Positions 20,769 through 43,743 of a stretch of DNA of 64,000 bases are shown in pieces. The notes under the pieces were generated by a model that saw only the letters and a program-made list of their open reading frames with translations, had not been told where the DNA came from and did no database searches. The translations under genes and the position numbers were made by a program. The first letter of the stretch is position 1. Each line of letters opens with the position of its first letter. The DNA comes from Owenia fusiformis (taxonomy: Eukaryota). The DNA is taken from NCBI GenBank assembly GCA_903813345.2, contig CAIIXF020000001.1:3348001-3412000 (forward strand), written 5' to 3'.

Positions 20769-23700
20769 ATGCTTCCAATTAACCCTATAGGACCTGGTAA
20801 GTCTTTATATCTAGTTTCTATTTAGGTTCTAACTAGCAGGACGGAGAAAAGGCTGTTACAAATTGAATATTTGAGAAATTTATGAATCACTCAAATCAGA
20901 ATGAGGAGATCAGAAAATTGAAAAATGTGGAATATATTCTAAACATTAGATGTATTTAAGATATTTTGAGTTTTTTTATTTTGCCAATAGTCCACGACTC
21001 TCAAATGAGATGGTTTTGATATATATTTTCGCCTCTGCTTCTCTAACAAGCATATATTGTCTGGCATGTTTCACAAACAAAGGCTGAACAAAAAGTGAGA
21101 AACACAAAACATCAATGTGTTACACTGAACCAGTGTAGACATTATTCAGAGGTCGCATGAAGTGCTTTAATGGAATAGCCTTTAGAATGTTCATGCTTTA
21201 TCTGGAATTTGATTTTAGAGGCACGGGGGGTTGTTTGCTGAAATTTTTTATGCTCTGTATCGAAATATGGTGTTAAAAACTTGTTGTCCAAAAATTAAGA
21301 ACCTTAGGAACATGTCGGGTAAATGGTCTTCTTATTTTCGTACAATCATCCTTTGTAGAGACTCATCTTTACAACTATGATTGAACATTTGATTTTAAAT
21401 AATGAAGAAAACATTTCTTTACAAAATGTTAGCAAAACAATAGAGAAATTCATAAAACATTTTCCCCTGATAATTAGGACAGTCTTTGCTTTGAGCATTT
21501 TTATTATCAAAGTCTCTTCGATGTTGTCTTTCAACTTTTGATATTTGATGATTTTAACTATAAGTTTACATCTAAAGAAAACTGTCCTCTCAGATTTTAT
21601 TAAAAAATGTTCATGTCCCTTTGGTAAAATGAAAGACATTTTCACATCAATATCAAAAGTCTGCCAGTGCCATCAATTTCTTTTATCAAGTTTAATTGTA
21701 TCATTAATAGATTATGTAAATCTAATATTCAGTTCAATTTGTCATAATACCCTTTGTCCTGAGTTGATTTAGAGTTCACCTGTATGAACAGTTTTGGTAT
21801 GATGTTCTCACAAGTTATCTATTCTCTAAAAAGCCAATTTAGCCTTATCCGCACTGGAGTGTTCAGGTGAATTTAAAAATCTAAGAAGTTATAGAAATTC
21901 AAAAATTCAAAGAACTTTCAACTTATTATAAGATGACCTTTTACAGTTAAAATAACCCATAATATATAAAATTTTCCTCATGTTAACAAGAAATACAAAC
22001 TTTCAAGACAATCAAGGATTCTAATTTATTTCTTACTTATTTCGTACACAGCGAATGGTTTTATACCAAGCTTGTCACCACCAGACTTTAACCAAAACAA
22101 CAAGGACTCTTTACGTACAATGCTGCCAGGTAAATATAACACTAAGCAGCAACGTTACCTCTAAATTGAACAGAATACAAAATATATATTCAGAAGTACA
22201 ATAGTAGGGGATATTCAACCCTGCGCTGTCTGTAATATAACGTTATTCATTGCATGCAATGTTAGAGGCAACAAACTGTACCATGTACAGGGGCAATGAA
22301 ATGCAGATCAGTCAAGCCCCCAAGGACGTAACATATGGGTATACTGTAATTAAAGCTTTTACCCATATACTGGGGTGATAAAAATGATTTCAGTACCCCT
22401 GATAATTTACCTATCATTTTACATGTTTGTAGTCACCTGTCTATAGATTACTTTTAAACTCAGTCTGTCTACCTATATGTATCTAGAATAAAATCTATAG
22501 TTAGTTTCTTTAGACATTCATCTTCATAGTGTGTAACTATCCATACTTTGTATAGGTAGGATTCTATTCCATCCAAGAACAGTATAAACTCTTCACTTAA
22601 TTGATACTAATTTCTCATATATTATTACCTGGAAATGATTTTTTATTTGGCTATATCCATGTCTGGAAAACAGTTCTAAAGAAGGCCACGGGTCATTTGT
22701 TATTTAGGGAATACTCATGAATATTAAGTATCGAAACCTGCTTCTTATATCACTTCAAATGGTCTCCAACCTTTTTTATGACATTTGGCAGACGGGTTGG
22801 TGTATGGCATCTATAATAGTTTGCAATAACTTACAAAGTTGTGACATGTTGTGTTAATGCCTTGTTTATAATATAAAATTATCAAGATGTCTTGAGTTGA
22901 TATCAGTGCAATTCTTTTATCAAAAATTGTTTTGATTCTTGAATATAGGCCTACCCTGTGAACTTCATGACTTTCTTCCTGGTTATTAGTTTTTTTCAAT
23001 GATCCGTGTCTAATTTAATTCATTTTTCTTTCAATTGCTATCCTATCTTGTTACTTTTTCAAATAAAGAATAAGTGAAAGTTGCATTATATTGCAGGGGC
23101 AAATCAGGAAGTTATCAAAGGGGATCCGAAAATGCATTTTGAAAATATTTTGTTGGAGACACATTTGAAAATTTTGCCCCATTTTTCAAATAAAATTACC
23201 TTATTTTCCAAAAAACAAATTAGGCATTATTTGAAAACGAGGCCCAAATTATATAGTCTCATCCATATGACAATTGGCCCATGTTCTTTTTATATCCTTT
23301 TGTTTTGTTGGTGTTTATTATAATTTGGGGAATCCCCATATGACTAATTTGAAACTAAGTCACAAGATTTGTAGTGGTACTGACATATATTTCTGTACAC
23401 ACTTCCTTACCTATCTTCCTCCACCCCTAGCCCCACCCATGCATAGCAGATGAATTCCTAAATTCCTTACTTGGGAAGTATTCTTTCATGTTTCCCCAGC
23501 TAATCACTCAGTACTCAACTACCTACTGAACCCCTGATGTACTGTCTTGTTTAGTTGTGAAAAAAGAAAAAATTTTTGTGAAATACCATGTAATATCATC
23601 ATGGGAAGATCTTAAGTAATATCACAATGGGTTACAATTTACTCTTAACAGTGAATTGATATTGGTATTTCTTGGGCCAACTAGTCCAAGCCATGATGAC

Positions 23701-26700
23701 ATATTAAAATTTGAAAGCGTTTTCCTTACTTTCCTGGTGCGTCGTAAGCTTTGACCCAGAGGCTCGATGCCAGTTGAATGATTTGGGCCTGCTAATTTTT
23801 TCATCTGATAATGTTTTGATTTGGCCCCTACATCCCAAATCCTTATGACGCATCCTACTTCCTCTTTTCCTAGTTTAATCAACTTTGTACGTGTCATTAA
23901 TACAATGCACTGTGTGTAATTACATCACAATAGAAGTGAAGTTAGATTAAATTCACAATTTGCAAAATATTTTATCTTTCTTACTAGTACTTTGGAAAAT
24001 TGCCTGATGAATTGGAGTTTAAACAAAATGATAATCAGTTGTTTATTTTTGAAATATTATTTGCAGTCTGTTTTGCACAAAAACAAAATTATTATGTTCC
24101 TCCACCGATATTATCAAAAATAGCTTGCATTTATCAGCATGTTAAACATTGAGAAAGCACCAATCTATCAGGCACATTTTATAGTCTGGTGGTCGATGGT
24201 ATTACCCATTTTATTTCACAATCACAATTACACATCCATTTTATGTTAATTGTAATTTTATGTGTAATGGCTTGTAATTGTGAATAAACTACTGTCCAGG
24301 GCTAAAGCTGAAATGAGTTAGAATTGGTTGCTGGTTTGCATCAATATTTTTAGGTGAAAGGGTACTTTTACATTTTGAAATTTTGTATTTGTTTTACTGC
24401 ATAAATGTCTGGCTCATATGCCAAAATGATCTTTTCAGCATGTTTCTCCAAAACAAATGTTTTATCATCTTTGATATTCTTCAGTATCAATGGATGTTTA
24501 TATGAGACACATTCTACCAGCATTATTAATATTTATTTCATTAATAATTAGTTGGTCTTAATAAGTCATTAAAATTATGAAAAAATGTTATTTTATTTTA
24601 GGTCAACCTGGCCTAGGGGGACAGCAGGTTGGTCCCCCAAGAGGAATGCCCCCAGTTGGGATGCCACCGGGCCCACCTGGGGGACTCCCCCCAGTAGGTA
24701 TGCCACCGGGAGCTATGCCTCCAGTAGGTATGCCCCCTGTTGGAATGCCCCCTGCCCAACCGCCTCAAGTGCCCCAACAACAAGGAATAGAAGGAGGAAG
24801 ATCGGAGGGCAGTCCCATCTCAGGCTTCCAATGTCCAGCAAGACCTAACCATGGTGTTGATGGTAGACCCATCATGCTGCGTGCCAACCATTTCCAAGTG
24901 CGTATGCCACAGGGCTTCATACATCACTACGATATTCAAATCACACCAGATAAATGTCCAAGAAGAGTTAACCGGTAAGTACAATATTAATGCATTTGAA
25001 AGATCTAAGTAATTATTATATCACTGTCATATTCCCCACTCTCTTATTGGTCTATACCATACACTTGACTAAAAATAAGAAGGCTTATTCATCGCCCAAG
25101 CACTGAAATTAAAAGAATGAAAGATGCACAAGTATTCACCTCCATAGTATGAAATATTTTTGGATTATCATCCCTTTTGCTGGTATGCTCTGGCTCTGGC
25201 TTTTAAATTCTTCATATATCTTGAAAAATGTTATTCTCTGGCACTTTACGAAAATAAGATGTTCCCCTTCTGTGTATAACATGAGTGTATTTGTTGAAAA
25301 CAGGAAACATATTTTTCCCAACAGGTGCTTATATTTGCCATCTGCTGTTTTCTAATAAAAGAGCTGATTATATGATCTTGACAGTTGACAAGCACCTTCA
25401 TCATTAATATTGGGTTGCTTAATGATTTCTATTTATTTATTTTCTTCCTCGAATGTTATTCATCATTCTTACTAGCCTATATCTTGTTTTGTAATGCATG
25501 TGAAATTATTGATGGTGCAGTAGAATAAACTATGAGTTAACATTTTGACAGTCAACTTCCACCCCTTCCTTGCCAGGTTCACAAAACTGCAAATTTTATT
25601 CTATTATGTTATCTAATGTCCCCTTGTGCCTGCTTTTTAATTAAATAATTTAGTCATTATTTATTTTTATTTTAGTGAAATCATAGAAACAATGGTGCAA
25701 GCCTACAGAAACCAAATATTCAATGGCCAGAAACCAGTATTCGATGGAAGGAAAAATCTGTACAGTCGAGATCCTCTACCAATAGGGCGAGATAAGGCAA
25801 GTGAAATATGTAACCTAGAAACTTTAAGCCATAAAGTCTATATGTCAGTACCCTGCGTGCAGAGTCTAGTTAAACTACACTCTGCCTAGGAGAGACTATA
25901 TTGCAGTTTAGTAGCCCCGCCCCCACGACGGGTACCGGTGACAGTTTGGGTAATAAATCACTTTTGACCTACGCGCTGACCTTTCTTCCACCAATCAGCG
26001 AGCTTGAAAAAACATACGCCAAATGCGTTCTTATTAAATATGCGCATGTCATTGGTCAATTCCGGGCTCAACAATGACGTCAGAAGGAATGACCATATAT
26101 AGAACGTCGGTCAAATTTGGCCGACGAACACTGATTGGCGCGGTGAGTTCACAGGTTTATTTTAGTTTGAAAGAGTGAAGACGAAGCTCTCTTTTAAGAA
26201 GTGAAGTCAAACGAATGCAAAGGGTAATATGTCAGAATTAGAAAATGTTCATACATTCACAAATTGTGTCAACTTTTACTTTGTTTCATAAGTAGTGTAC
26301 TACTGTAAGACATGTGCATATTGAATGCCTATGGAGCTACAAAAACTAGGGAAGTGTCCACTACAGAATTGTTTTCAGTTGAAACATGTGTTCAGTAAAA
26401 TGGAGTGTAGCATGTTTTACTGCACAATACTTCCTATATGTCTGGCTTCAACGTAAATAATATGAATTGAAACCAAACAAACACTTTTATTTTAGATTGA
26501 AGTTGAGGTAACTTTGCCTGGAGAGGGTAAAGATCGTGTATTTAAAGTTGCAATCCGCTGGGTCGCCCAAGTCAACCTATATGCTTTGGAAGAGGCACTT
26601 GAAGGACGAAGCCATGCAATGCCATTTGAAGCAATCCAGGCACTGGATGTCGTCATGAGGCATTTGCCCAGTATGACGTAAGTCTTAATTATAACGAAAT

Positions 26701-29700
26701 AATTATAAGAATATATAATTAAGTGTATATACAGAATATGATTCGGTATGAAACGCTGAATTGGAGATTCTTAAACTAAATAAAATATTCGCTTTCAGGG
26801 TGAATGTTCAGCTTCAGTATTCAGGTTTTTAGGCAAATTGTTTTGTATTAATGTCAAATAATACACAGAAATTCTCATTTAATCTCCAGTGTGACTATTG
26901 GGATTGATTACATTGCTGAGATCAATTTTCTGCTGCCAGTCATGAAGGAAATAATGTTCTAGGCATGATTATGACGCACATGCACCAACATCCTGTAATA
27001 ATTATCCCATCGAATGAAGTTGGGAGGATATAGAGAACGCCTCTGTCCGTCTGTCTGGGCAATAGTTGGAATTCCATTGACCCAATGGCCAATATTGTTT
27101 ATATTTTATAACATATGACATATGCCCTATATGAGTAAAGTTGATTTTGGAAATGGCCACCAGTTTTAAAATAGCCACCATTTTAGTGTCAATTTTACAG
27201 TATTTTAGTTACAATATGTAATTCTGCATTACTTAAAGTAAAAACATGGCAGCCATGTTGAGTGATTTTTTGTTGAAATTTTACGCATGAATACTTGAAG
27301 CATATTACACTAATGACAGTGTAGTGGAGCGATTTTGGTGATATTTTTTATGTGAATTCTTATTAAAACTTTAAAGGCATGTATTACCTAATGACACTTT
27401 GGAAAATATTGGGAGCCATTTCCAGGAAATTATGGCCATTTTTGTTTGTGTTATTCTACATTTTTGCTATAATTGGAAAAGAAATAGAGCAATTTTGTTG
27501 ACACTGTTAAATTATATATCTGCTTTATATGGGCTTATTAGCCTATTGCAGATTATTGACATAGACATATCTTTTAGCAATACATCTATGGTTGCCATTT
27601 TGTGACATGATTTCTAGCAGTGTTGTCTGACACTCAATAGATGTTTGATAGGATCTTTCTCTTTGGCGTTGCTGTTATCTAGTTAGATATCCATTTTCAG
27701 GTCGTTATAGAGAAACCAAGCCTGGTGATTTTCATTACTTGAGTTTTCAATTTTGTGACATTCCTTTTCAGGTCCCTGGAGAGCAGATCAGATTTTCCAT
27801 TGATCTGTGAATAAATGTGCATCATATTAACTGCTTTGATTACTTACTAGGTATACCCCAGTAGGGCGTAGTTTTTTCTCACCCCCAGAGGGTAATTATG
27901 ACCACCCATTAGGCGGTGGGAGAGAAGTTTGGTTTGGGTTCCACCAGAGTGTACGTCCATCTTTGTGGAAGATGATGTTGAACATTGATGGTAAGACTGA
28001 ACTGTGTATATTTCCATGTATTGTTCTATGGTATGTGGCGGACCTGGCTAGCTGGCTTTTTCAATACAGGTGTAGGATGTGGCTACTTTGCATTTTTGAT
28101 AGCATGCATGGATGATCTGTTGTGCTGGTGTTTCTTTCATTATTACCCAAAGCATTCACATCAAGAATTTCTTGTGAAATACAATTCTTTCTGGCTTAAA
28201 CAACAACAATATCAACAATATGTTCACAATTTTTATATATAGTATATTCACATATTTATTTCACAAGATTCACACAGATTGATCTCTCATATTAATCTTG
28301 TGACATCATATATTGGGATGTTCAAAGTCAAATTGTATTTCACTAAGAAGGGAAATCTTGGTTCATACATGTTTGCTTGGTGTGTTTGTCTGCCTGCTTA
28401 TATATATTGGGATTCCATCCCCCAAGTGCACCTAATAAAAGAACTTTAAGGTACACCTTAGGGATGTTCCCTGGAGGTTTAAAAATAGTATTTTTGGTAC
28501 TTTTGTCATTCATAGTTTTCTGAGGTTCTAATTGGCAACAAAAGATATAAAACTTAAAAAATTATATTCTGTTAGTGTGCTTTTTTCCAAGAAATATTTG
28601 ACAAAATTGGGCGTGGCACTACCTCATTGAATCCCATGTAAACAATCAGATTTCACCCGAAACACAATTTGAAGTATTTAACTTTTCTTAAACTCACAGG
28701 AACACTTAGTTATGATATGTACATTACATTTGGAAGAAAGAAAATTTACCAATTAATGTTCATAATTTTCAACTTTGTCCAGGGTACATCCTTAATGGAT
28801 TTAAAAAACAGTGAATTCAAAACATTACAGGCTGGCATCTTGATAGAAATTGAGTTGTATGAATCCATGTTTTTTGGAGCTTGGTGATAGCTTAAGCTTG
28901 GGGATGGCTTTCTTAGTTATAATATAAGCAGGCAGATGCGTCATGTCACCGTTTTTGGTGTACTTTGTTTTAACTTCAATATTATGGTTACCTACAGCTT
29001 TAAAGAAACAATCAATTGAGTAGCCTAATTTGAAGTTTAGCAAAGTGCATATTCAATGACTGCCCCAGGTTCCCATGGTTTTTGTTGCTTGCTTTGAGTT
29101 TTCACCTTTACGTAGTCATGTGTTTAATTGCACAGATATACCCCAGTCGGCCGGTCTTTTTTCTCACAACCGGAAGGCTACAATCACCCCTTAGGTGGAG
29201 GCAGGGAGGTTTGGTTTGGATTCCACCAAAGTATCAGACCAACTCTATGGAAAATGATGCTTAACATAGACGGTAAACAAACGCAATGATATATTATTGT
29301 AATGGCCTTGTTAGTATAAATGCTTTCTTGGATTGGTGCTAGAATCTTAGACATTGTATTAAGTTGTTTTTATGTGTTACTTGGTCCGATGCATGTATAT
29401 AGTAAGATAAACTATTAAGAGGAAAATATTTAAATAATATGTGTTTTTTCGCTGCATATTTACTCTAGTATTCACATATTTCTTTGTTAGTTATGTTGAT
29501 TAATAAAAATACCTAGAGATATGCCTGCCAGTAAAAGAGCAAGATCTCTAGTAATAAAAATTAAAGTGATCAAATTTACTTTGTTTATGCTTATTTGAGG
29601 AAAGCCAGAAGGATGAGGCTGGTAGCATCTAATTTCACAATCTATTTTATTTAGTTTCTGCCACTGCCTTCTATCAGGCACAACCTGTGATAGAGTTCAT

Positions 29701-32700
29701 GTGTAAAGTCCTTGAAATGAGAGATGCCAGTGAACAACGTCGCCCACTTACTGATTCGCAACGAGTTAAATTCACCAGGGAAATCAGAGGTAAATGCTAC
29801 ATTCTGCTTTATTATTTTATTCAGTGTCCGCAACTGCGTTCTATAAAGCTCAGCCTGTCATCGAGTTCATGTGTGAGGTCCTTGACATGCGAGACGCCAG
29901 TGAACAACGACGTCCACTAACTGATTCTCAGAGAGTTAAATTCACCAAGGAGATCAGAGGTAAACAAATAAACAATATCTGTGAGTTGTGAAGCAAACAA
30001 ACAATGTTGTTGCGTGTTGGTGTTTGTAAACGTAGTACTCATAAGTCTTGTATCAAGCCATTGTGTACCCCCCCCCCCCACCTCAGCATTAAATGCTTTA
30101 TGAACCAGTGTAAGACCGATTTGGCAAATTAGAGCGCAGTAGTAGAGACAAGAGAGCAACCCCTTTGCTTTCAATAAAAATATACCACCAGTTATTATAT
30201 GCAGTTCATCTATCCATGTGTAATGCATTCATTTAGGCAATAAAGACGCTAACACCTGACACCTGGCTATTGCCTCATGAATAATTGGTTACACCCAAAG
30301 TACTTACAAATAATCCTCTATGAAAAGAGATATGATAATGGGGGAAATAACCTTGATGCAAGACTATAAACGCATGAAAGTTGATGTAAATATTATCTTT
30401 AATAAAGCTGGAAACTTGCTTGTAAATTTTACAGGTCTGAAAGTGGAGATCACACATTGCGGCACCATGAAACGAAAATACAGAGTTTGCAATGTTACAC
30501 GTCGTCCAGCGCAGACACAATCGTAAGTTAATTTATCAGTTTATCTTGTGGCTGTATTTTTGATGAGTGACTGGATTTGTTATCAAATAACTTGCGTGGT
30601 TAGCCATTTCCCACACTTGTAAGAGTATAGGCAACTTGGATTTAGTGAGTGAATCCATAAATTGGTACATGTACAATTATAACCTGTGAAGTGAACACCT
30701 CCATAACTGGAACACTTTTAAAGGTCACTTACCCATTAGCTTCATGTAAAATGAACTTCTGTACGTGGAATGCCTTCTAAGAGGACCATTTACTATTTAA
30801 AGGTACCAAATGTGTTCTACTTACACAGGTTTTACTGTATATCATAAAATCTACATGTGAAATATGTTTTTTCAGCTTCCCACTCCAGCTTGAATCTGGA
30901 CAAACCGTGGAGTGCACAGTGGCCAAATACTTCTTTGAACGATACAAAATGAAACTTCAGTAAGTATAAATGCAAATTTTTATTGGAACTGGTAGTGTTG
31001 GAATCCCCATGTTGTTGATTATACAGGGTCTTGATAGTTCATCCATGTTCCTCTACATTGAGAAAACGATACCTTCATCAAACTTACTTTGATGTTACTA
31101 TAACAAAATAAGAATAAACATTTAAACTTGTTCAGCATTTTCTTGTCAATGTCAAATGTTTTGATACGATAACATAAAAAAGTGATTTGATTTGTGAATC
31201 CATGTTAAAATTCTTATGTATATTACAGTGAGATGTTTCCTGTTATTTCAGATTTCCTCACCTGCCATGTTTACAAGTAGGTCAGGAACAGAAGCATACC
31301 TACCTTCCCTTAGAGGTATGGAGTTACCTTATCACGAATTAAACCTTATTTAAGAGGCAAATTAATCATTTATATACATACATATAAAATATGAGCTGAA
31401 TAACTTCAACGTCTATGATGAAAAAAAATTAAAAATTACCACGGTGTGTTTTGCTATTATTTGATTCATTGTCAAATGATTATGTGCTTATCTCAGTTCA
31501 CCTTATGATCACCTCAGTTATTCTATAGCTATCAATTCATTTTTCCATGACTATCACTTTATTGTACCACATCTTTCACCTTATTTATTCTGCAAATGTA
31601 CTCCAAATATTATGTTCCACTCAATAGTTTCCTTCCTGAAAAAATATTAGCCTGACTCATTAAAACTCACTCTTAAATTGTGGCCTCGGAGTTAATTTTA
31701 CTCCTAACCTATACTATGTGTATTACATCATGTGCATTATTACATCATGTGCATTATTACATCATGTGAATTAGGTGTGCAGGGTCATTGCTGGGCAGAG
31801 ATGTTTGAAGAAGTTGACTGACAACCAGACCTCCACTATGATCAAGGTAGTTATATTTTTACATGTTTATCTTGTAGGTTTGTGTTATAGTGGCTGGACA
31901 ACGCTGTATGAAGAAACTCACTGACATGCAAACATCAACCATGATCAGGGTATTCTTTTCATTCACATATTATACATGTGTTATATACCTGTTATTAGTA
32001 GCAAGCATGGTAAAGTTTGAACCTATGGACCATACATGCGTCATCGTGTGCTACTCTTAAAAGTGTCATAAATGGATACGTGGTGATTAGATTGCTGTTG
32101 TTAAACTCTGAAATGAGTCATACAGCAAAAGTAAATTTTCTGTATTCACATACAGATTTTTTTGTACATGGTGATGTATTCTTAGCCGCACTTTATTAGC
32201 TGAGAAATCTAATAGTTTAGCCTATTGTATGTAATTATCAAAGAGGTAATTACAAGTACCTATATGTAACCTGAAAAAAGTACAGGTTAAATGAATATGT
32301 TACTGTATGAATTTGTTCCTTCCGAAATTTCGGTTTTCTGAAAATTATGACATTGATATCTGGTAAAAGTTCAAAATCAATTCATGGAAGTGACCCGGGA
32401 ATATGTTGATAAAATGCAATCAACATCTTCATTGCAACCATGTATATCAAACTTCTACCATGCACTATTAGATAAAGTGTAATGTAGCATGCATGAGTAC
32501 ACATTCATCCCTTCTTATCCGCTATTGAAAATTGTGCAATGATACAACTTTTTTATTTAAATAGTGCAATGTTTAGGCAAGCAGAAATTTATTTTAGAAA
32601 GGCCTGCTTTAGTTCAGTTCATTGTTCTACGGAAGTTGTAGAATTTATGTATACTCATGTATTTCTATTAGTCATACTCAAGTAGATAATCGAAATGTGA

Positions 32701-35700
32701 TTATTAAATTTTTGTCTAACTAAGTTCTCTAATTTTTTTATTAAATGTATGAACTCGTATTTCATCAATGAAAATTTGGTCTAGAATCTAGACTGCATGT
32801 TGATTAGATGATTATTCCTATTTGCATGATTTGTTGTCTTTCTTTGAGAATATATCTTCAGAATATGATAAAGGATTCCTTTTCAATATGTAATTCAGAT
32901 TGAAAGTTCTATATACATGTTCATGTGTCAGGTGAGTTGATCTGGATGAATAATAAATATACACATGGATGTCTGGGATATGACAGACCATTGAATCCTC
33001 AAAGCACTAAATCCTTTAGTAGGATTATGAGCCATTTAGGTAGGCATCGGTATAGATTTTGGACATGGTACACATGTAAAAGGCCCAACAGCCAGTTTAA
33101 TCACTGTACACTGCCTACCTAAGTCTTTGTGACTCCTATTTGTGAAGAGTTATTTTATGTCTGACAATTAACATATATTGTATTGTTATATTGTAGGCAA
33201 CTGCCAGATCTGCACCAGATAGAGAGAAAGAGATCAATAGCTTGGTAAGTCAGCATTCCCCATTAAAGTAATTATTACCACTAGGAATACATTCAAGCTT
33301 AAGCAGTCTAAAGGCTCATTGAATTTCCCTGTCTTAATGTTAAATAAATGATATATAAAATGTTATCATATGGACTATCATTGTTGGTAAATGCTTAGAA
33401 GTGAATATACATTGTTCAACACATCAGTGACTGGTGCTTACAAATTGATTGCTTTATACATTAGATACATATCACTTTGTTTTCTCATATACATTTATTA
33501 TACATGTATGTGAAATTGATTATATGCTGGAGATAAAACATGGTAAGATACTCAGATACGCAGCTGTAATTTTGCCAAGCTAGAAATTTTTTGTCCAAAA
33601 TTAAGGTCGAGGATAAATATAAGTTAAATGATCAAACTAGCCTTTCCTTTAACCCTTATCCTCCCAAGACTAGATTGTTTCATGATTCTATACTTCTGCC
33701 ACCAGAAGTTGTGTCGATGCCAAAATTATTTCTCCCAACTTCTTTGTGACCAAAATATTGTTTAAAAATCAATGATACCAGAAACTTATTTGTAAGGTAA
33801 ATAAAGAAAATGTTGGAACATACATATCAGTACATTTTTAAGCATTATGAAATTCCTGACATTTTATTACTTGTCACTGGGAGATAAGGGTTACATAGGA
33901 ATGTTAGTTTTGCCTAAATGTTTAATTTCTTCATTGTACAGTATGCCAGAAGGAGGAATTTTTGTAAGAGTTTACTTGGTTATAATATAAAGCCAACAAG
34001 TTTGACCATTTCCATGTATTTCTATATTCATGTGTTTTTGTGATACACTTTTCGAAACACTCAAAGTTTTAGTTTTTAGAGAATTTTGTCTTTTGCCCAT
34101 TTTTATATCACTTTCTTTTCTTAAATCTTTATATCTAAAAAAAGAGATGATGAATTTTTTTGTCCATTTTTTATCAGTTTCTTTTCTTATAAATTAATAT
34201 CTAAAAAAGAGAAATTAACTTCCAATCTCCTTTCAGTCTACTTCTGTTGCCCTTGTATTACAAAAGTCATCCCCAAGTATCATTCTGCTGTGTTTCTCCT
34301 TTTGATTAAATCTCCTGTCATTAGAATTGTGTTGAAATGATTAGCATTATGTTGTATAACTCAAACAAGCTTAAAATTATATAGAGTGAGCTTGAAAATA
34401 TTTGCACTCCATTCAAATATGTCGGAGAAGTTGACCAGAGTTGACGGGAGGACAGTAATTGCACCCATTGATCTTATTTCTTGCCATGTGCCTAGGTACG
34501 CAAAGCTGACTTCAACAATGACCACTACCTACAAACATTTGGCATCAGCGTGGCGAACGCTATGACCGAAGTTCAGGGTCGTATCTTGCCCCCGCCTAAA
34601 CTACTCTATGGTGGAAGGGTAGGCATACATTATACAACCCCCGATCAAAGACCACAATAATACAGTCATACAGCATAATGAATCAAATTATTTAATTCGC
34701 ACAATAAAATTAATTCTCATCAATGAAGTCAGTTTATTATGCTCCATTCATGTATAGTTTGGGATTTTTCATATAAAGAAATGGTTGCATTTCTTTCAAA
34801 CCATATTATGCTGTGTGTTTAGAAATTATTGTGTCCTTTGATGTTTATTTTTCAGTCTGACTGGCAATAATAGGCTGAGAAACAATGCATATGACATTTC
34901 TGTCAATCCCAGCAGTTGATATGCATATATGGCCTAATATTGCATGTGATATGGTGAGAGGTGTGCAATGGCTGGTCACTCACACTTAACCAATCGGGTG
35001 CCTCTGTCTGTCTACTTATAAGCCGCCATTTCACACCTCATCACCATTGCTGTCTCAGTGAGAGGCATGTTTGTGATATGAAAGGTCCCGTCACTTCTGA
35101 GTGTTCGGAGTGCCCTCTGGTGATGTATGTTTGTGATATCGTGTTTTGCGACCCATTCTGTTGCCATTAGGTTCGTAAAGCTGATTTCAACTCGGATCCC
35201 CATCTACAACTGTTCGGAGTGAGTGTGTCCAACAGAATGGTAGAAGTCCAAGGCAGAGTTATCCCACCCCCCAAACTACTGTACGGAGGAAGGGTATGTT
35301 AAGAAGGACCACGCCTGTGATGCATGCGTTGTTTCAAAATACAGACAAGCTGAATGTTCTGAGCTGCCAATCATCATCTATCCCATAATGCACCTGGTGC
35401 TGTCTGCTCTTTCACTTCCAGATAATTCCCCATTCAAAAACTGTCAATTTTTGGTCTAAGAAGTATTGGAGAAAAAAAATGAAAAACAAGAAATAAAATC
35501 TGTTACATTTTGGGGAAATGTCTTGCAGATGAGAGAGTGGCAGGCATATTGTTATATGTATGTCTTGAGGAAGTGTAGATGTTTTATTCGAAAACCTACG
35601 TGTTTTGTCGAGATTTTCTCTTTGTTTAGTTTGTCTAATACTCTAACATCACTTCATAACCTCTGTACAAGTAATCATCAATCCAAGCACTGTTTTAGAC

Positions 35701-38700
35701 ATCAAACATGGTTTTTGAGAAACCGAAAACTTAAAGAAACTGGAAAATGATTATTACTTGTTTTGTTAGATCTAGTAGCTCAGATAATTTCAGTTTTGTT
35801 GTCTTTATAGTTTTAGTTTATTTTCTATTTTGGTTTCAGTATTTAGCCATAATATCCCAAAATTATCTTTTTAAAATATTTTTAATGCATGTTCATTATT
35901 ATTTAATTTTTGTATGCAAATTCTGAAATCACTTGTTTACACTGGACATGTATTATAGTGCAAATTATCCATTGCAATGTTGTTCCTTTAAATTAGTGCA
36001 GGTAGGTAGGTATTCACCATATTCACCTCATATATTGTTATCCCATATGTGCTTTTAGAATTCATTCCCAAGTGGCTGAACAGATTCTCATTCATATATT
36101 TAGTCCTAGATCATTTCCCAATTTTTTGTTTTGTTTTTATGTCACCACCAAAAGTGGTGACATATTATTAAAGTCTCCAACTCTTTGTGGACTGTGTTCA
36201 GCAGTTGATGTTCGGTGGTTGGTGTTCAGCATCTGTAATAAATGGCAGGTAGTGACATTTTGCATGCTGATGCCTTGTTAATAATTGAAATGAAATTGTT
36301 TAGTTTTGAATTATTATGATTTCATAGTAATTTTATTTTGACTTGAATGTAACCTATTCAATCATGATTAACCAAACGTGTGATGTGCTCGAGTGAAAGT
36401 GTGTGTGTTTGGATCAGTGTGATAAGAAAGAAAATAAAAAGTAATATCTGGAGTACATTTCATCAAGAAAGGTTTTAAACTCAATGATGTACAGGTGTGT
36501 AGATTTGAGTAAGCTTTGTATTTGGTAAATGCTCCAGATGTAACACTCCCATGTGATCGATGTATGAATGTGGCTTTATTCCCAACTGGCTTACATCTTG
36601 ATGAGAACATCTTTCATTTACATGTGCTTATGTAAAGCTCACATGTTCTTCACATGAAAACACATATTTTGCAATTATAAACAGAAGCACTATGAGATAC
36701 AAATTCGAACATTTTCTCATCACCAAATTTTGCACTTTGTCATTTCATCTTAGAAATCAGTATAAAATTTTTATGTTGAAAATATATTTACTATTAGTTT
36801 TATTATATCCATCACACTATTTGCAACTCAAGACAACACTAATAAAGTTTTTAAAGAATTACCAACTGAACATAAAATCTTGTTACCATGACAACGAGAA
36901 ATCAGATTTATACAAACATTGATTTTACTTGTAGACGAAAGCCCAGGCTATTCCCAACCAGGGAGTATGGGACATGAGAGGTAAACAGTTTTACAGTGGA
37001 ATAGAGATCAGAGTCTGGGCAATTGCATGTTTTGCACCTCAGCGTACAGTCAGAGAAGATGCTCTAAGGTAAAAACAATATAGCCCCCAAGAGTGCTTTA
37101 AATAATAATTATTCAATAATTGTATATATGAAATTATAAACAGTTTGTTGAGGGGAGAAGTACTCATGAAAATATAGAACAAATGAAGTAAGAATGATCC
37201 ATCCCCTGGACAAAGATCACATGACTGAGGTCAAGGTCACGAGGTAACTGAGACTTCAAACTGTTAGAATCGAAGAGTTTTACTTCTGAAATGCTAAGCA
37301 AATAAAGATAAATTCAACAAATAGTAAACTTAACTCAAGGGTACACAAGAACAAGTTAACTTGTGTTGCTTTGGGCACTTTAGAGAAACAATCATTTTCG
37401 ATAAATAGTAAATAAAAAATTTTCCAGTTTTATGATGAGAAAAAAGCCTTGCTATTTAATATTTATGAATTATTTTTCAGAAACTTCACATCCCAGTTAC
37501 AACGTATATCTAACGATGCAGGAATGCCTGTAGGGGGTCAACCATGTTTCTGTAAGTACGCCACAGGCCCTGACCAGGTAGAGCCCATGTTTAGATACCT
37601 GAAGAACACATACCAGGGCCTACAGCTCATCGTCGTTGTGCTTCCTGGAAAAACACCCGTATATGGTAAGTGTTGAAATTTTATTACAGTAAAGACATTT
37701 CAATTGAACAACTCTCTACAAAGAAGTTAGTCCCATTTACATGTAATATAAATGAACCCCCACTATCTATGAGGAACTATTTGGCCAATACTGAATGTGT
37801 TCTGTTGACACAGGTTTTATAATATGAAGTAAAACCTGTTTCTTTGAATACCAAAAGGGTTCCCTGGGGTTTGAAAAACAAAAATCCCTGGCCTGGAAAA
37901 GTTCATGAATTTCAGAATTTCCTTTAAAATGTCTAAAATTGATTTTATGCTGGTAGCATGTCTGTGATGTTCTTTTTTGTGTAATGCCAAGAATAACAGT
38001 TCCCTTTACTACATGGAAGTTTCTATGTATTTTAGCTGAGGTTAAGCGAGTGGGTGATATTCTATTTGGTTTGGCCACTCAGTGTGTTCAGGCAAAGAAC
38101 GTCATTAAAACATCCCCACAGACCCTCTCTAACCTATGCCTTAAGATCAACGTCAAACTAGGTGGCATCAACAGTATACTCATGCCTAGTGTTAGGTAAG
38201 TCATACATTTCTGCTATAGGTTCATTGTAAACAAAATTATATACTGTATTCTCTGTATTGGCTTGGGAGTTTATGAAATTCGAAATACATCCTTCAGACC
38301 ATTCAAATAAGCGCCCATAAATGAACGTTAAAAATCCCTGGTAGTTTCATATGTGGCAATTTTCTTGCCAAGAATGGCTTATTCTCATTTGAATTTATAT
38401 CTTAAATTTTTAATTGAATGACAGATCATCATTTTCAAGTTCACAGCCCTGAAGTGCGCAGAAGCTTTCTTGGTTACATGTTGAAACATTGTTCTTAAAC
38501 TTGAACATTTCCTTCATTCATATATCAGGCCAGCAATATTCCGAGAGCCTCTCATCTTCATTGGTGCCGACGTAACTCACCCGCCAGCAGGTGACGTGAC
38601 AAAACCCTCAATAGCAGCCGTTGTGGGCTCACAGGATGCCCATCCCAGTCGATACGCCAGCACTGTCAGAGTCCAGTCTCACCGGCAAGAAATTATCACC

Positions 38701-41700
38701 GATCTAGCCGCCATGGTCAAAGAACTGCTCGTCCATTTTTACAAGTCCACCAAGTTTAAGCCCACCAGAATCATCATGTACAGGGATGGTGTCAGTGAGG
38801 GCCAGTTCGCTGAGGTTAGTAGCTTGCTTGATTACTCATTGAAATCAAGAATCGCAACATTTTTAAATGTTATATTCAATATTGAATATAACATTTTTGT
38901 TAACTGACATTCAGTATCTTTAACAAATGGTACTTTTGTGACTGCAGTCATGTGATGACATTTTTTAAAGTTAAAATGGTGCTTTGTTGCTGTTGAAATG
39001 AGAAGAATATATACTATTAAGAGAATACTTTTACACTTGCTTGTGTTCTTCATTGAATTCAGGATTACTTTGTGCTTCCATCTGTTCTTTTTTCAATTAA
39101 ATTCAAATTGCTTCTGGTTTATAAGTAAAACATGATTGTTGAAAATCTAATTAGCCATGAAATGTATATGCCCCTGGCCTTTTTCTTTTTCGTGTATTGT
39201 ATGAAACATTGTTTGATTGACTTTTAATTTAATAAATTGAATTGAACTGAATTGAATTGAATTGAACTGAACTGAATAACAATTAGAGTAAAACCTGTAG
39301 AAATGAACACCTTTGGTACCTCAAATTTAGAAGGTGTTCCACTTGCAGAAGTTCATTTAGCAATATTCAGTTATTCAGTAATAGTTGAAAAGTGTTCCAT
39401 TTATGGGAGTGCTTCTCTTACAGAGGTCTTCCCCTTCACAGGTTTTACTTTAGATAACTTCAGTTGTTCTTGAAGTAAGTAGTATGTTAATGATTTTATA
39501 AAAAATTCTTGTTAGGTTTTGGTGCGTGAGCTACGTGCCTTACGTGAGGCCTGCATGAAGCTGGAAGTTGGTTATCAACCAGGAATCACATTCATTGTGG
39601 TCCAGAAGAGACATCACACAAGACTCTTCTGTGCAGACAGGAAGGACCAGGTAATATAATACAGAGTTTCATGTCATCATTGAAAAGTTAAGCTACATGT
39701 TTTTTAAGAAAACGTGTACATGAGTGTCTAATATTATGACCCCAGGGATTACAGAAAGGACCAGGTAATATAATACAGAGTTTCATGTCATCATTGGAAA
39801 GTTAAGCTACATGTTTTTTAAGAAAACGTGTACATGAGCGTCTAATATTATGACCCCAGGGATTACAGGAAGGACCAGGTAATATAATACATGATTCATG
39901 TCATCATTGGAAAGTTAAGCTACACGTTTTTTAAGAAAACGTGTACATGAGTGTCTAATATTATGACCCCAGGGATTACAGAAAGGACCAGGTAATATAA
40001 TACAGAGTTTGATGTCATCATTGGAAAGCTGAGTGTGTGATGTGTAATATTATGACCCCAGGGATAACCATCCTCATCTCACATGACTCTTCCAGGGACC
40101 TAATTACTACTATTTCCCTTATGCCTTTATTCTCAGTAAATACAATGAAAAGAAGAATTTATGTTAACTGAAAATGTCTAACTTCTGAAGTTTGTCCTGA
40201 TTGGTTAACAAATGGCTACATATTTTTGGGCATTGACCTAATTTCTACTCAGCTATAAACTGAACATAGACATAAGCTATTGTAGAATGAATCATCACCT
40301 TCTCTAGATTCTAAATTGATTTGTGTAAGAGTGCTAACATTTCTCATGTTTGTTGTTAGATTGGGCGCAGTGGTAACATTCCAGCAGGTACAACAGTGGA
40401 TGTAGGTATCACCCACCCCACAGAGTTTGATTTCTACCTATGCAGCCATGCTGGGATCCAAGGCACAAGTAGGCCTTCTCATTATCACGTCCTGTGGGAT
40501 GATAACCGATTCACAGCTGATGAGCTGCAGATGTTGACATATCAGCTGTGCCACACCTATGTACGTTGTACCAGAAGTGTCTCGATTCCTGCACCTGCTT
40601 ACTATGCACATCTTGTGGCATTCAGAGCCAGATATCACCTTGTAGAGAAAGATCATGATAGGTAAAGTAGCATATACCTATTTTATGTCTAGTCCTGTTT
40701 TACTAAGTACTTATTATTGTGAGTTCATTTTTATGTCCCCATCATATGTGATGGAGAGATTACTTTTTAACAACTGTCAGTCTCTCGGTCTATTACTAAA
40801 ATCTAGAAGTTTAGGGTATCAAATGAATTAGGGAAATTTTTTAGTCCTTAACATTCATTTTTACATTCACAGTAAATGAGCATTTCAAACTTTTTTGCAA
40901 AATCTATACACTTAATGATGACTGCATCAGGCTGACGTGTTTAACCATGTGTAAAGTAAAATTTTGATTCAATCACACAAGTAAATTCATAGAGGTAATA
41001 AGCAGTATAAGGGTTCACTGGGTAATACATGGTGCCCTTAAAAGAACTTTCTAAAGATTTTTTATCTCTCTTAACTCTAACTTCATTCTATGTATACTAT
41101 AGCCTGTCTAATCTGAACGCAATTTAGATCTGCCAAAAGTTTTCTGATCACCAGGTATTCTCCTTTTGAGGTCTTAAGATCAGAGCATATGAAATAATGG
41201 ACTAAAAAAGATTCACATTGAGAGGTGTTCAATCATATAATAGGTGTTTGGATATACATGTTTTACTGTAGTTTAACATGGGGACATTCTACACTCTTGT
41301 GCTTTATTATTTCAGCAGAAACAAAGCAAATATTACCCAACAGAAAATGTCATTAAAAGAAAATGCCTATTCCAATCCATAGTTCACTTGTTATAATTTT
41401 TATTTATTTACATTAATTTACATATTGTTTTGATATTAAGTACATTGAACCCCCTTTACATTGTATACTGGCTTTCCTCTCTCTGGGGGGTGGTAGTTTG
41501 CCTATAAACCCGTCTGTTAAGTTTGTGAAAGAAGTTTATAACTTTGCAGTCTGCATGATACTGCAACAAGAAAGATGTTCAACATGACATAAAACATTAA
41601 GTTCTCAACAAACTCCAGTACTACAGTAGTATTGGAGAATATGTAACAGTGTATCTTTGGTTCATAAACTTCTTACTCTAGTTCCATTTTATATAAATGA

Positions 41701-43743
41701 TTCAGTCATGTTGGTCATGCTTCTGTGCATTTGCTTTATGCATGTGTGTCTAATGCCCTTTAGTTCAATTACTAGTGTATTCGTCACTATGGTGATGCTC
41801 TTGAAATATTTAATGAAAGCCAAAGTTTCATCAGTTCCAGTTATAAAAATGGATGCTAAAAGGAATAACTGATACACATGACTAATAAAAACATGCATGT
41901 CCTCAGAGTTGATACTAAAGTTTCACTATGCTGCCAATGGGGTTTCTATTCAGGATATCTTAATCACACTTGCTAGTTTTCTGTGTTCCAAGGTGCAAAT
42001 TTCTGCAAATAAAAATAGCAAATCTGTAAAGATTCTGCATTTATTGCAGCTGTTTTTTGGGGTTTAATTTGAAGTGTAGAAAATGTGTGATTCAATGAAG
42101 TAATTTTCTTTAATGAACATATGACAATTTAATACATGTCGATGTATTATATTTCATTGCTTCTGTTGTGCACATATTGATCAACATTGTAGGAAATGTC
42201 TAGAAATATAAGGTTTATGTATCCTAGATGAGCCGTTTCTGTTTTGTTAATTTGCAGTATTGAAAAATTCTGTAAATGAAAATAGCATTTTTCTGTTGTG
42301 TGTAGAAAATGGAAAACTGTAAGTGTGATTAATAAATGACAATTATTGAAATACATGCATCATGTTTTTAATGTATATCAGAATTCACAAACTTAACCAG
42401 TCAGATTGATGGCAATTTTTCCCACCTTAATCTTGATTCATTTTTGAAACAAGTGCTTTAGATTTAACATTTAAAAGAGCAATTAAACGATTCATAAATT
42501 CTGATATTACAGTATACTTAGTGGTAGCGGGATGCCAGTCATCTAACACGAATTATAAGCTTGTGTTGTGCATATGTTTCTTTTATTTTATTCTGCACAG
42601 TGCTGACAATGGAAGTTCAGGGAATGGTCACAGTTTCCATGCTTACGGGTCAACATCTGTATACAGGTACAAAATATAAAACATTTATTTCATTTTTAAC
42701 TTTTTGTTGTTTTCTGTTATTGCTTGCATATAGGAAATAACATAAGACCCTGCCCAAGAGGCTTTGTACTCCCAGAGTTTTTCTTGATTTGTTTTTAAAA
42801 ATCTGAGTTAACTGTGAATTTCAAGGGCATCATTGTGTATTGTTAATATGTTGGTGTGCTGTGGCTGCTGTGTGTGTTGTGTGGCTATTAACCACTGCTA
42901 GCTTATAGTCTACTCTGTAACCTGCATTCACTTATACCTCCTGTCAATATGCAACAACCATATTATCAATCCAATACCACTTTTTATGTTGAGACACCTA
43001 ATCACTGTGTCCAATTTTAATTATATATTTTTGGGAAATATTGTCCTGTTTCTACTCACTACTAAGCGGGTAGCAAAAATTTCAACACAAAGGAGTGACA
43101 CCAGTAGGTTCCTGCCAAAATGATACATTATTGCTTGGAAATTTTGAATGTGCTTGTTTATAAACATAAAAACACAAAACCATGTCTCTTCTATCAAAGC
43201 AATCCAACATATATTATCAGATATTCAATAGACATAGATACAATTTTTGCTTTTTGAGAGACATTATAATTCAAGAAAAAAGATGGCAGTGTGGGTGGTC
43301 TTAAGGAAAGCATGGTGACCAGAAACAAGAATTACTTTTGCTTGGCCTAATTTATCTTCTGTGAAATTAGCTTTCATTATGCTTAACTGCAGTTTGTGCT
43401 TTTTATTTTTACAATTTACACATAATTTCCATGTATGCTTATTAGCATGATAACAGAATGCCCCTTTATAAAATTGGAATAAACCATTTAGATCAGTCAA
43501 AAGTCCTCTTACCTTACCTAAAAAATAGAAGGATTGGACTACCACTAGGGCTAACCCAAACTCTGATTCCTTCACATTTACCTTTATTTGAAGTAGACGT
43601 GTAATTAATTAATGATGTTGTTTGCTTTCAGTGGGGAGGGCAGCCAGTTGTCTGGAGATCCATCGACTGACCACAACCCCCAGGCTCTGGCGAGGGCCGT
43701 CTCAGTGCATCCTGATACATTCAAAGTCATGTATTTTGCCTAG
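20769..43743 (+). CDS. AGO: AGO-clade Argonaute (miRNA type, similar to vertebrate AGO1-4 and insect Ago1), about 922-971 aa depending on isoform, DEDH intact
   Basis: Exons E1 20769-20796, E2 22052-22129 (cassette), E3 24602-24974, E4 25676-25796 (GC donor), E5 26496-26677, E6a/b, E7a/b, E8 30435-30522, E9 30876-30959, E10 31252-31315, E11a/b, E12 33197-33244, E13a/b, E14 36935-37068, E15 37481-37665, E16 38036-38195, E17 38529-38814, E18 39516-39650, E19 40360-40661, E20 42601-42666 (cassette), E21 43632-43743. Motifs: [15 protein letters not shown] (PAZ), GKTPVYAEVKR (MID), [29 protein letters not shown], and C-terminal MYFA*. E1 and E2 are less certain than the rest. Confidence 0.97.
22052..22129 (+). 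CDS. AGO: Argonaute N-terminal cassette exon (78 nt, phase 1-1)
   Basis: Pyrimidine tract + acag|CG AAT...CCA G|gtaaat; open frame (A)[25 protein letters not shown]. Confidence 0.6.
27001..27676 (-). mobile_element. Degenerate HINE/pearl-like element in Argonaute intron 5
   Basis: Reverse-complement similarity to both ends of the element at 55321-56598 (attatcccatcgaa..gaagtt..., ...ctttggcgttgctgtt). Confidence 0.65.
27851..27990 (+). CDS. AGO: Argonaute exon 6a (L1 linker)
   Basis: 140 nt, [50 protein letters not shown]. Confidence 0.93.
28458..28795. mobile_element. Old MITE between Argonaute exons 6a and 6b
   Basis: Imperfect TIR ttagggatgttccctgga / tccagggtacatccttaa. Confidence 0.45.
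29136..29272 (+). CDS. AGO: Argonaute exon 6b (L1 linker)
   Basis: 137 nt, [49 protein letters not shown]. Confidence 0.93.
29655..29789 (+). CDS. AGO: Argonaute exon 7a (L1 end / PAZ start)
   Basis: 135 nt, [49 protein letters not shown]. Confidence 0.92.
29825..29959 (+). CDS. AGO: Argonaute exon 7b (L1 end / PAZ start)
   Basis: 135 nt, [49 protein letters not shown]. Confidence 0.93.
31775..31846 (+). CDS. AGO: Argonaute exon 11a (PAZ end / helix-7)
   Basis: 72 nt, [28 protein letters not shown]. Confidence 0.9.
31878..31949 (+). CDS. AGO: Argonaute exon 11b (PAZ end / helix-7)
   Basis: 72 nt, [28 protein letters not shown]. Confidence 0.9.
34496..34618 (+). CDS. AGO: Argonaute exon 13a (L2)
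   Basis: 123 nt, [45 protein letters not shown]. Confidence 0.92.
35171..35293 (+). CDS. AGO: Argonaute exon 13b (L2)
   Basis: 123 nt, [45 protein letters not shown]. Confidence 0.92.
39637..40064 (+). repeat. ~114-nt tandem repeat (about 3.7 copies) spanning the Argonaute E18 donor
   Basis: The unit starts acagRaaggaccag|gtaatataat; GT donors at 39651, 39765, 39879 and 39992. Confidence 0.95.
42601..42666 (+). CDS. AGO: Argonaute C-terminal cassette exon (66 nt, phase 2-2)
   Basis: Long pyrimidine tract + gcacag|T GCT GAC...TAC AG|gtacaa; open frame (S)[21 protein letters not shown](S). Phases match the E19/E21 junction. Confidence 0.65.

Follow-up and report, generated by a model that had tools for sequence, protein, structure and literature searches.

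Tandem pairs of duplicated exons and their alternative use in the microRNA-class Argonaute gene of Owenia fusiformis

Silencing by microRNAs (miRNAs) centres on Argonaute, a protein that animals are generally believed to have diversified through extra gene copies. In vertebrates, the paralogues AGO1–4 all belong to the miRNA class and have a common core, with differences in regulatory residues. Within single genes, variant proteins can be generated by mutually exclusive exons, for which steric and frame-based exclusion are well-known mechanisms. Drosophila Dscam1 has several clusters in which homologous exons, matched in length and phase, lie in tandem and a single one is chosen. In alpha-tropomyosin, exons 2 and 3 are kept exclusive by a donor that is too near the branch site and acceptor of its partner, and in FGFR2 the exclusivity of the IIIb and IIIc exons is maintained by the reading frame, their lengths not being multiples of three. 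Sequence features of these exon systems are present in a 64-kb stretch of the Owenia fusiformis genome (assembly GCA_903813345.2, contig CAIIXF020000001.1, positions 3,348,001 to 3,412,000 of the forward strand), referred to here as the window. The plus strand of the window at ~22.0–43.8 kb is the O. fusiformis miRNA-class Argonaute gene, in which four internal exons are each found as a tandem pair. As in Dscam1, there are several clusters of homologous exons, although each Owenia cluster holds two copies, against dozens in Dscam1, and the product is an RNA-guided effector rather than a surface receptor. Unlike the vertebrates, which vary gene copies, Owenia varies exons within one gene, and only those for linker 1 (L1), PAZ, helix-7 and linker 2 (L2). 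It is probable that these are four old tandem pairs that have been kept, with one copy of each pair entering the messenger RNA (mRNA) and with exclusivity achieved on three different bases.

Exon numbers used here are those of the initial annotation, made by a model from the sequence, and coordinates are positions in the window. All eight exon copies that it had proposed, two each of exons 6, 7, 11 and 13, are present on the plus strand at the positions it had given. Exon 6a (27851–27990, 140 nt) and exon 6b (29136–29272, 137 nt) are 1145 nt apart and encode ArgoL1 (residues 174–219 of human AGO2, hAGO2); 6a is the canonical-like copy and exceeds 6b by one codon, giving one extra residue. Exons 7a (29655–29789) and 7b (29825–29959) are both 135 nt and encode the end of L1 and the start of PAZ (hAGO2 219–264), with 7b the canonical copy and 7a derived. 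The spacer between them is only 35 nt (29790–29824), beginning with GT and ending with AG. A similar GT...AG spacer of 31 nt (31847–31877) separates exons 11a (31775–31846) and 11b (31878–31949), which are 72 nt each and encode the end of PAZ and most of helix-7 (hAGO2 343–366), 11b carrying the alternative helix-7. Exons 13a (34496–34618) and 13b (35171–35293), 123 nt each and 552 nt apart, encode ArgoL2 (hAGO2 383–423). Adjacency, equal phase within pairs, near-equal length and intact splice sites, as expected of clusters of mutually exclusive exons, are found in four of four pairs. As the initial annotation had claimed, AG precedes and GT follows all eight of the exons, and translation and boundary checks found no stops. 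A deposited O. fusiformis protein (P0006, 970 aa), which matches one large PIWI exon of the window at 100%, was used as a tblastn query. Exactly two copies of exons 6, 7, 11 and 13 were found, with no third copy, and the exons of the N, MID and PIWI regions had one match each. The copies absent from P0006 were matched with E-values of 4e-21 (6a), 6e-22 (7b), 7e-7 (11b) and 4e-15 (13a). Together with the Pfam placement of the pairs, this agrees with the initial annotation that the variable exons are confined to L1, PAZ and L2 and that N, MID and PIWI are single copy.

The spacing and lengths of the pairs, which were not mentioned in the initial annotation with regard to the 35 and 31 nt spacers or the extra codon of 6a, suggest how double inclusion may be avoided. 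The 18 introns removed from the Argonaute gene range from 292 to 2458 nt. The spacers of pairs 7 and 11 are far below the shortest of these and are too short for intron removal, so that the partners are predicted to be unspliceable to each other. Occupation of the first copy's donor would leave no room for use of its partner's branch site and acceptor, and vice versa, and the partners would never be joined. Such a mechanism would parallel that of alpha-tropomyosin. In pair 6, neither 140 nor 137 is a multiple of three, therefore the inclusion of both copies or of neither is expected to shift the frame; such mRNAs would presumably be removed. Exclusivity by frame would be shared with FGFR2. Pair 13 has neither the spacing nor the frame safeguard, which would leave the choice between its copies to regulators. 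No junction joining both copies of a pair was found among the best 15 of 93 joints in the RNA data described below.

The two members of each pair have diverged considerably at the nucleotide level, with identities of 74, 83, 67 and 67% for pairs 6, 7, 11 and 13, respectively. Their amino acid identities are 41/46, 40/44, 18/24 and 31/41. The proportion of synonymous sites that differ (pS) is 0.86, 0.62, 0.86 and 0.80, versus 0.08, 0.04, 0.19 and 0.19 of non-synonymous sites (pN), with Fisher p-values from 3e-6 to 8e-16. Synonymous sites are near saturation, which supports the earlier claim that the exons were duplicated in tandem long ago and have since been maintained by purifying selection. 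The claim that the flanking introns are unrelated was upheld for the majority of the flanks. When 60 nt flanks were compared against a reference of 287 random intron pairs, six of eight comparisons were at chance similarity; the flanks upstream of pair 7 and downstream of pair 11, however, are in the top 1% of random-pair similarity.

Conservation of the individual copies was assessed against 44 homologous sequences of other animals (51 for exon 13). Invariant columns were changed in 0 of 31 for 6a and 2 of 31 for 6b, in 0 of 25 for 7b and 3 of 25 for 7a, in 2 of 20 for 11b and 3 of 20 for 11a, and in 0 of 10 for 13a and 1 of 10 for 13b. When near-invariant columns of pair 7 are considered, 7b again has no changes (0/34) and 7a has four. 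At the 90% conservation level, three of 21 columns of pair 11 are changed in both copies. Those copies for which little or no use was seen in the three sequencing runs discussed next are therefore preserved as well as their partners or better, save 11b at the 90% level, where the two are equal.

Evidence for exon choice came from three raw RNA-seq runs labelled Owenia fusiformis (X13, X14 and X15) and from a set of contigs, presumed to be RNA, from another study (X9), aligned to the region 24001–44000. Reads of X13–X15 are nearly all of one orientation, as expected of a stranded library and a plus strand gene. Junction counts, given in the order X13/X14/X15, are from the best 15 of 93 joints. 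The dominant isoform in these runs is 6b-7a-11a-13b, which is also that of the deposited model P0006. It is seen in the joints from exon 5 to 6b (26677 to 29136; 69/62/186 reads), 6b to 7a (58/56/179), exon 10 to 11a (63/69/186), 11a to exon 12 (77/89/155), exon 12 to 13b (61/72/134) and 13b to exon 14 (77/73/200). The bin containing 13a has a sense depth of 6.75/5.68/7.58, with adjoining intron-only bins at ~0. Over the exon itself this is a depth of 37/31/41x versus 96/114/238x for 13b, a 13a share of 27/21/15%. The joints from exon 12 to 13b fall short of those from 11a to exon 12 by 21/19/14%, in agreement with this share.

The X9 contigs have a different composition. Depth on 13a is 38.7x and on 13b is 19.7x, summing to the 58.4x of exon 12, so 13a makes up ~66%. 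There is zero depth on 6b. A spliced contig of 1,469 nt running from exon 3 into exon 12 includes 11a, and when its length is solved with 88, 84, 64 and 72 nt and 26 nt of exon 12, the exon 6 it contains must be 140 nt. The absence of 6b and the 140 nt exon 6 together indicate, by inference, that 6a replaces 6b in X9. The alternative use of pair 13 is real, given the depth on 13a between empty intron bins in X13–X15 and the presence of both copies in the X9 contigs. A 66 nt cassette exon encoding a C-terminal PIWI loop (42601–42666) is included in X13–X15, with joints of 76/113/209 and 140/149/236 reads on its two sides, and is skipped in the second X9 contig record (40659 to 43630). Exon 6, exon 13 and the cassette thus all differ between X9 and X13–X15, and exon choice is dependent on the sample. 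Alternative splicing of the tandem pairs, as initially proposed, is in this way observed for pair 13 and deduced for pair 6. Of the two cassette exons that had been proposed, the one at 42601–42666 is confirmed. The second is likely to be an optional segment at the N-terminus (22051–22134, ~residues 10–37 of P0006, 26–28 residues, placed by tblastn with approximate borders). In X15, 122 reads end at 24601 and their upstream letters (0.99 agreement) match residues 1–9 by eye, therefore the segment is mostly skipped in that run.

Two minor observations concern the same exons. At position 29156 of 6b, an extra T behind a T run is seen in 10 of 85, 6 of 80 and 24 of 252 reads (X13, X14 and X15), which may be a slippage error or a frameshifting allele. 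The isoforms of Aplysia vary at the same C-terminal place as the Owenia 66 nt cassette.

Several results weigh against the view that all four pairs are alternatively used and kept exclusive. No junctions or reads for 7b or 11b are among the best 15 of 93 joints. In X13–X15 the joints into 7a reach 84–96% of neighbouring junction counts and those into 11a about 92–100% or more, leaving at most ~4–16% unaccounted for at pair 7 and ~0–8% at pair 11, so that 7b and 11b would make only a small contribution, if any, to these runs. Among the 120 matches listed from a collection of 5.8 billion sequences, no protein carries 7b at 100% identity, the best short matches being at 91–93%. The use of 6a is drawn from contig arithmetic and missing coverage, with no listed junction, and the identification of X9 as RNA is a guess from its record, although its contigs are spliced. 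No duplication of exons 6, 7 or 11 was seen in the fetched annotated proteins of other species. An open frame is in itself weak evidence of use, as the frame stayed open in 15–43% of neutral simulations. Regarding the choice at pair 13, intron duplexes compared with dinucleotide shuffles were non-significant for the three intron pairs (z of -1.1, -0.2 and +0.8), and the 15 inverted repeats of 14–25 nt were unremarkable, with no motif or structure found that explains the choice. Unlike in Dscam1, docking and selector pairing was not found at these three exon 13 intron pairs.

With these results in mind, it might be argued that only pairs 6 and 13 are active, and that 7b and 11b are silent relics or have been silenced very recently. 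The lack of 7b and 11b among the best joints, the lack of an identical 7b protein among the listed matches, and the ease with which a frame stays open by chance would all be as expected. We regard this as rather unlikely, however. Synonymous divergence (dS) between 7a and 7b is ~1.3, and at this or at saturated divergence a long-silenced copy would be expected to have accumulated amino acid changes. Instead, 7b has no changes in either the invariant or the near-invariant columns and is better kept than the expressed 7a, while 11b has slightly fewer invariant changes than 11a and its splice sites are intact. As 7b retains every invariant residue, it would appear that 7b, and probably 11b, are used under conditions outside the sampled runs. 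An assembly or annotation artefact, through uncollapsed haplotypes or a mis-joined duplication, is extremely unlikely; an assembly artefact was among the findings that the initial annotation had named as overturning it. Identity between partners is only 67–83% and their synonymous sites are saturated, spliced RNA contains 13a, 13b and, by inference, 6a, and the exon 13 arrangement recurs in the independent genomes of several phyla.

At the other extreme is the Dscam-style scheme originally put forward, in which four independent choices generate 16 Argonaute cores, or 64 with two optional exons, at useful levels. All four clusters have intact signals and both copies of each are constrained, and the RefSeq isoforms of the nemertean Lineus show at least five different combinations of three variable exons. 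Against this, X13–X15 have essentially one combination and its 13a variant, 7b and 11b are missing from the best joints, and in X9 the differences at exon 6, at exon 13 and at the cassette come together, suggesting linked switching. Exons 6 to 13 are too distant for short reads to phase, and clusters of two copies offer far less diversity than those of Dscam. Fully combinatorial splicing is therefore considered unlikely. The apparent co-switching between the studies suggests a few regulated isoforms rather than 16–64 combinations, and a regulated switch is the more likely form of the alternation.

The identity of the gene is clear from its product. P0006 has the domain order ArgoN, ArgoL1, PAZ, ArgoL2, ArgoMid and Piwi, with six of six Pfam families above the cut-off. 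Its best matches among solved structures are human AGO2, AGO1, AGO3 and AGO4, and its database matches carry the names argonaute-1 or argonaute-2. The closest relatives expected of a protein of the miRNA class are the vertebrate AGO1–4 and insect AGO1. It aligns over its full length with human AGO2 structures (1472.6 bits), with the two numberings staying 88 residues apart across the variable exons. The residues aligned to hAGO2 D597, E637, D669 and H807, which we take to be the catalytic DEDH tetrad, are all four identical and are located in the single copy exons 17 and 19, in keeping with the constant slicer described initially. On domain order, tetrad and closest relatives, this is an AGO-clade (miRNA-class) Argonaute.

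The constant offset allows the variable exons to be placed on human residues with described roles. Exon 11 holds K355 and 11 of the 13 helix-7 residues. Helix-7 is given as hAgo2 L356–T368, touching the target at g6–g7, with K355, D358 and R366 as conserved backbone contacts (PMC8632932). There are six differences between 11a and 11b, including hAGO2 position 359 (N in 11a, M in 11b) and position 366 (K in 11a, R in 11b). Exon 13 covers the positions of S387 and Y393. Phospho-S387 recruits LIMD1 and TNRC6A, phosphorylation of Y393 affects miRNA maturation, and AGO3 has a glutamate at the AGO2 S387 position (PMC5507773). Both Owenia copies have D at the position of S387; at that of Y393, 13a has Y and 13b has H. 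Mollusc exon 13 versions differ at the S387 position, which is D, like a phosphomimic, or N. Isoforms of the Owenia protein would differ in linker 1, in the start of PAZ, in helix-7, which shapes g6–g7 seed pairing, and in the L2 patch. Target-search kinetics and partner binding would then vary around a constant MID–PIWI slicer core, a functional consequence of exon swapping that is suggested by the positions of the changes.

Exon 13 is the part of this arrangement that is shared with other animals. In RefSeq, isoforms named 'protein argonaute-2-like' from molluscs and nemerteans have an alternating exon 13 homologue in two versions of equal length, these being from Lineus longissimus, Pecten, Ylistrum, Aplysia, Babylonia and oysters. 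These are database records only, and in contrast to Owenia, exons 6, 7 and 11 are not seen duplicated in them. The survey covered annotated proteins, in which annelids other than Owenia were represented by Ridgeia, Helobdella and a partial Paralvinella. Some doubled exon was found in 17 of 184 fetched proteins, with exon 13 the sole doubled exon in five. Among these, Batillaria, Physella and Priapulus have clearly distinct exon 13 copies, which are both present in series in their models, and a snake fragment is also one of the five. The doubled exon 13 of Operophtera is an artefact, its copies being identical over 33 residues. The other 12 proteins have doubling of various exons; many are models well over normal length, six of them of 1,161–1,632 aa, and appear to be gene fusions or errors in segments of the model.

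A tree of exon 13 was made from 49 rows and 41 columns, from which Operophtera, Mytilus coruscus, M. trossulus, Pinctada imbricata, Crassostrea angulata and C. virginica had been dropped as redundant or artefactual. The bivalve D-type clade is strong (98/91) and the gastropod N-type clade is weak (80/82). Whether Owenia 13a and 13b are orthologous to the mollusc types or had a separate origin is left undecided by the tree. The alternation of exon 13 itself appears to be a conserved cross-phylum regulatory feature that seems to have gone undescribed in papers.

Other exons alternate in single lineages, at residues 201–261 in Ylistrum and Magallana, at residues 161–200 and the last exon in Lineus, and at residues 512–556 in Mytilus. 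It seems that exons of this gene have been duplicated in tandem repeatedly among the spiralians. The two versions of exons 6, 7 and 11 in Aplysia and Tubulanus are rejected as duplicated exons, since every exon differs and these are two genes. An insert of 3–6 residues is present between the exon 7 and 8 homologues (after hAGO2 ~263) in P0061, P0063, P0065, P0118, P0039 and P0074. Only part of the isoforms from Mytilus, Babylonia, Ostrea and a second Lineus gene carry this PAZ insert, which resembles an optional micro-exon. Another protein, P0187 (91 aa), has a truncated start of the exon 7 homologue followed by a full copy and may represent a decayed exon 7 duplicate in another species.

The initial annotation had considered the architecture to be undescribed for Argonaute. 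In the full-text literature, viewed mostly at the level of abstracts and with subscription journals outside its coverage, no paper was found on alternative or duplicated exons within Argonaute. A 2025 survey of small-RNA pathways in molluscs reports that molluscs, and possibly all lophotrochozoans, are without a dedicated small interfering RNA (siRNA) Argonaute, and the portion of it that was accessible contains no mention of Argonaute exon alternation (PMC12479628). An Argonaute of the miRNA class with four such clusters in its core, including one for helix-7, therefore appears to be undescribed. For exon 13, however, the claim of novelty must be limited, as its alternation is already present in the RefSeq isoforms of molluscs and nemerteans.

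It is possible, and is offered tentatively, that the spiralians diversify one miRNA Argonaute by exon modules rather than by gene copies, with an ancient L2 exon that hard-codes the state of a regulatory patch and additional lineage-specific clusters that tune seed pairing. If this is true, an alternative L2 exon common to the genes of annelid, mollusc, nemertean and priapulid would fix the state of a patch that vertebrates regulate by phosphorylation, with D or N at the S387 position in mollusc variants and Y or H at the Y393 position in Owenia. The lineage-specific clusters, including the alternative helix-7 of Owenia, would tune seed pairing, and one locus would generate RNA-induced silencing complexes with different partners and target-search behaviour by tissue or stage. 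Apart from this proposal, the Owenia gene shows that a supposedly single spiralian miRNA Argonaute is not one protein, and measurements of spiralian 'AGO' expression or function that are blind to isoforms could mislead. In Owenia, splicing that swaps linker, PAZ, helix-7 and L2 modules around a constant catalytic core would provide natural matched sets of isoforms in which the roles of these modules can be tested.

The remaining exons of the gene are single copy and on the plus strand. Exon 3 (24601–24974) encodes the Gly/Pro-rich N-terminus and the start of ArgoN, which continues in exon 4 (25676–25796) and ends in exon 5 (26496–26677), all three located by tblastn and reads. PAZ is encoded by exons 8 (30435–30522), 9 (30876–30959) and 10 (31252–31315), the start of L2 by exon 12 (33197–33244) and the start of MID by exon 14 (36935–37068), each defined by reads. 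Exons 15–19 (37481–37665, 38036–38195, 38529–38814, 39516–39650 and 40360–40661) encode MID and PIWI, with the four catalytic residues. The coding part of the last coding exon is at 43632–43740, from tblastn; the cassette borders are from reads.

The intron following exon 4 (25797–26495) begins AAG|gcaagt and ends in AG, making it a GC-AG intron, and it is spanned by 65/71/201 spliced reads in X13/X14/X15. Within introns, two places at 25849–26226 and 36134–36166 have very high depth on both strands with many loose ends of low agreement. Both resemble copies of a repeat that is dispersed and transcribed rather than parts of the Argonaute mRNA. Minus strand frames at 39688–40078, inside the intron that separates exons 18 and 19, contain a tandem series of three to four short open reading frames that are near-identical and resemble a tandem repeat.

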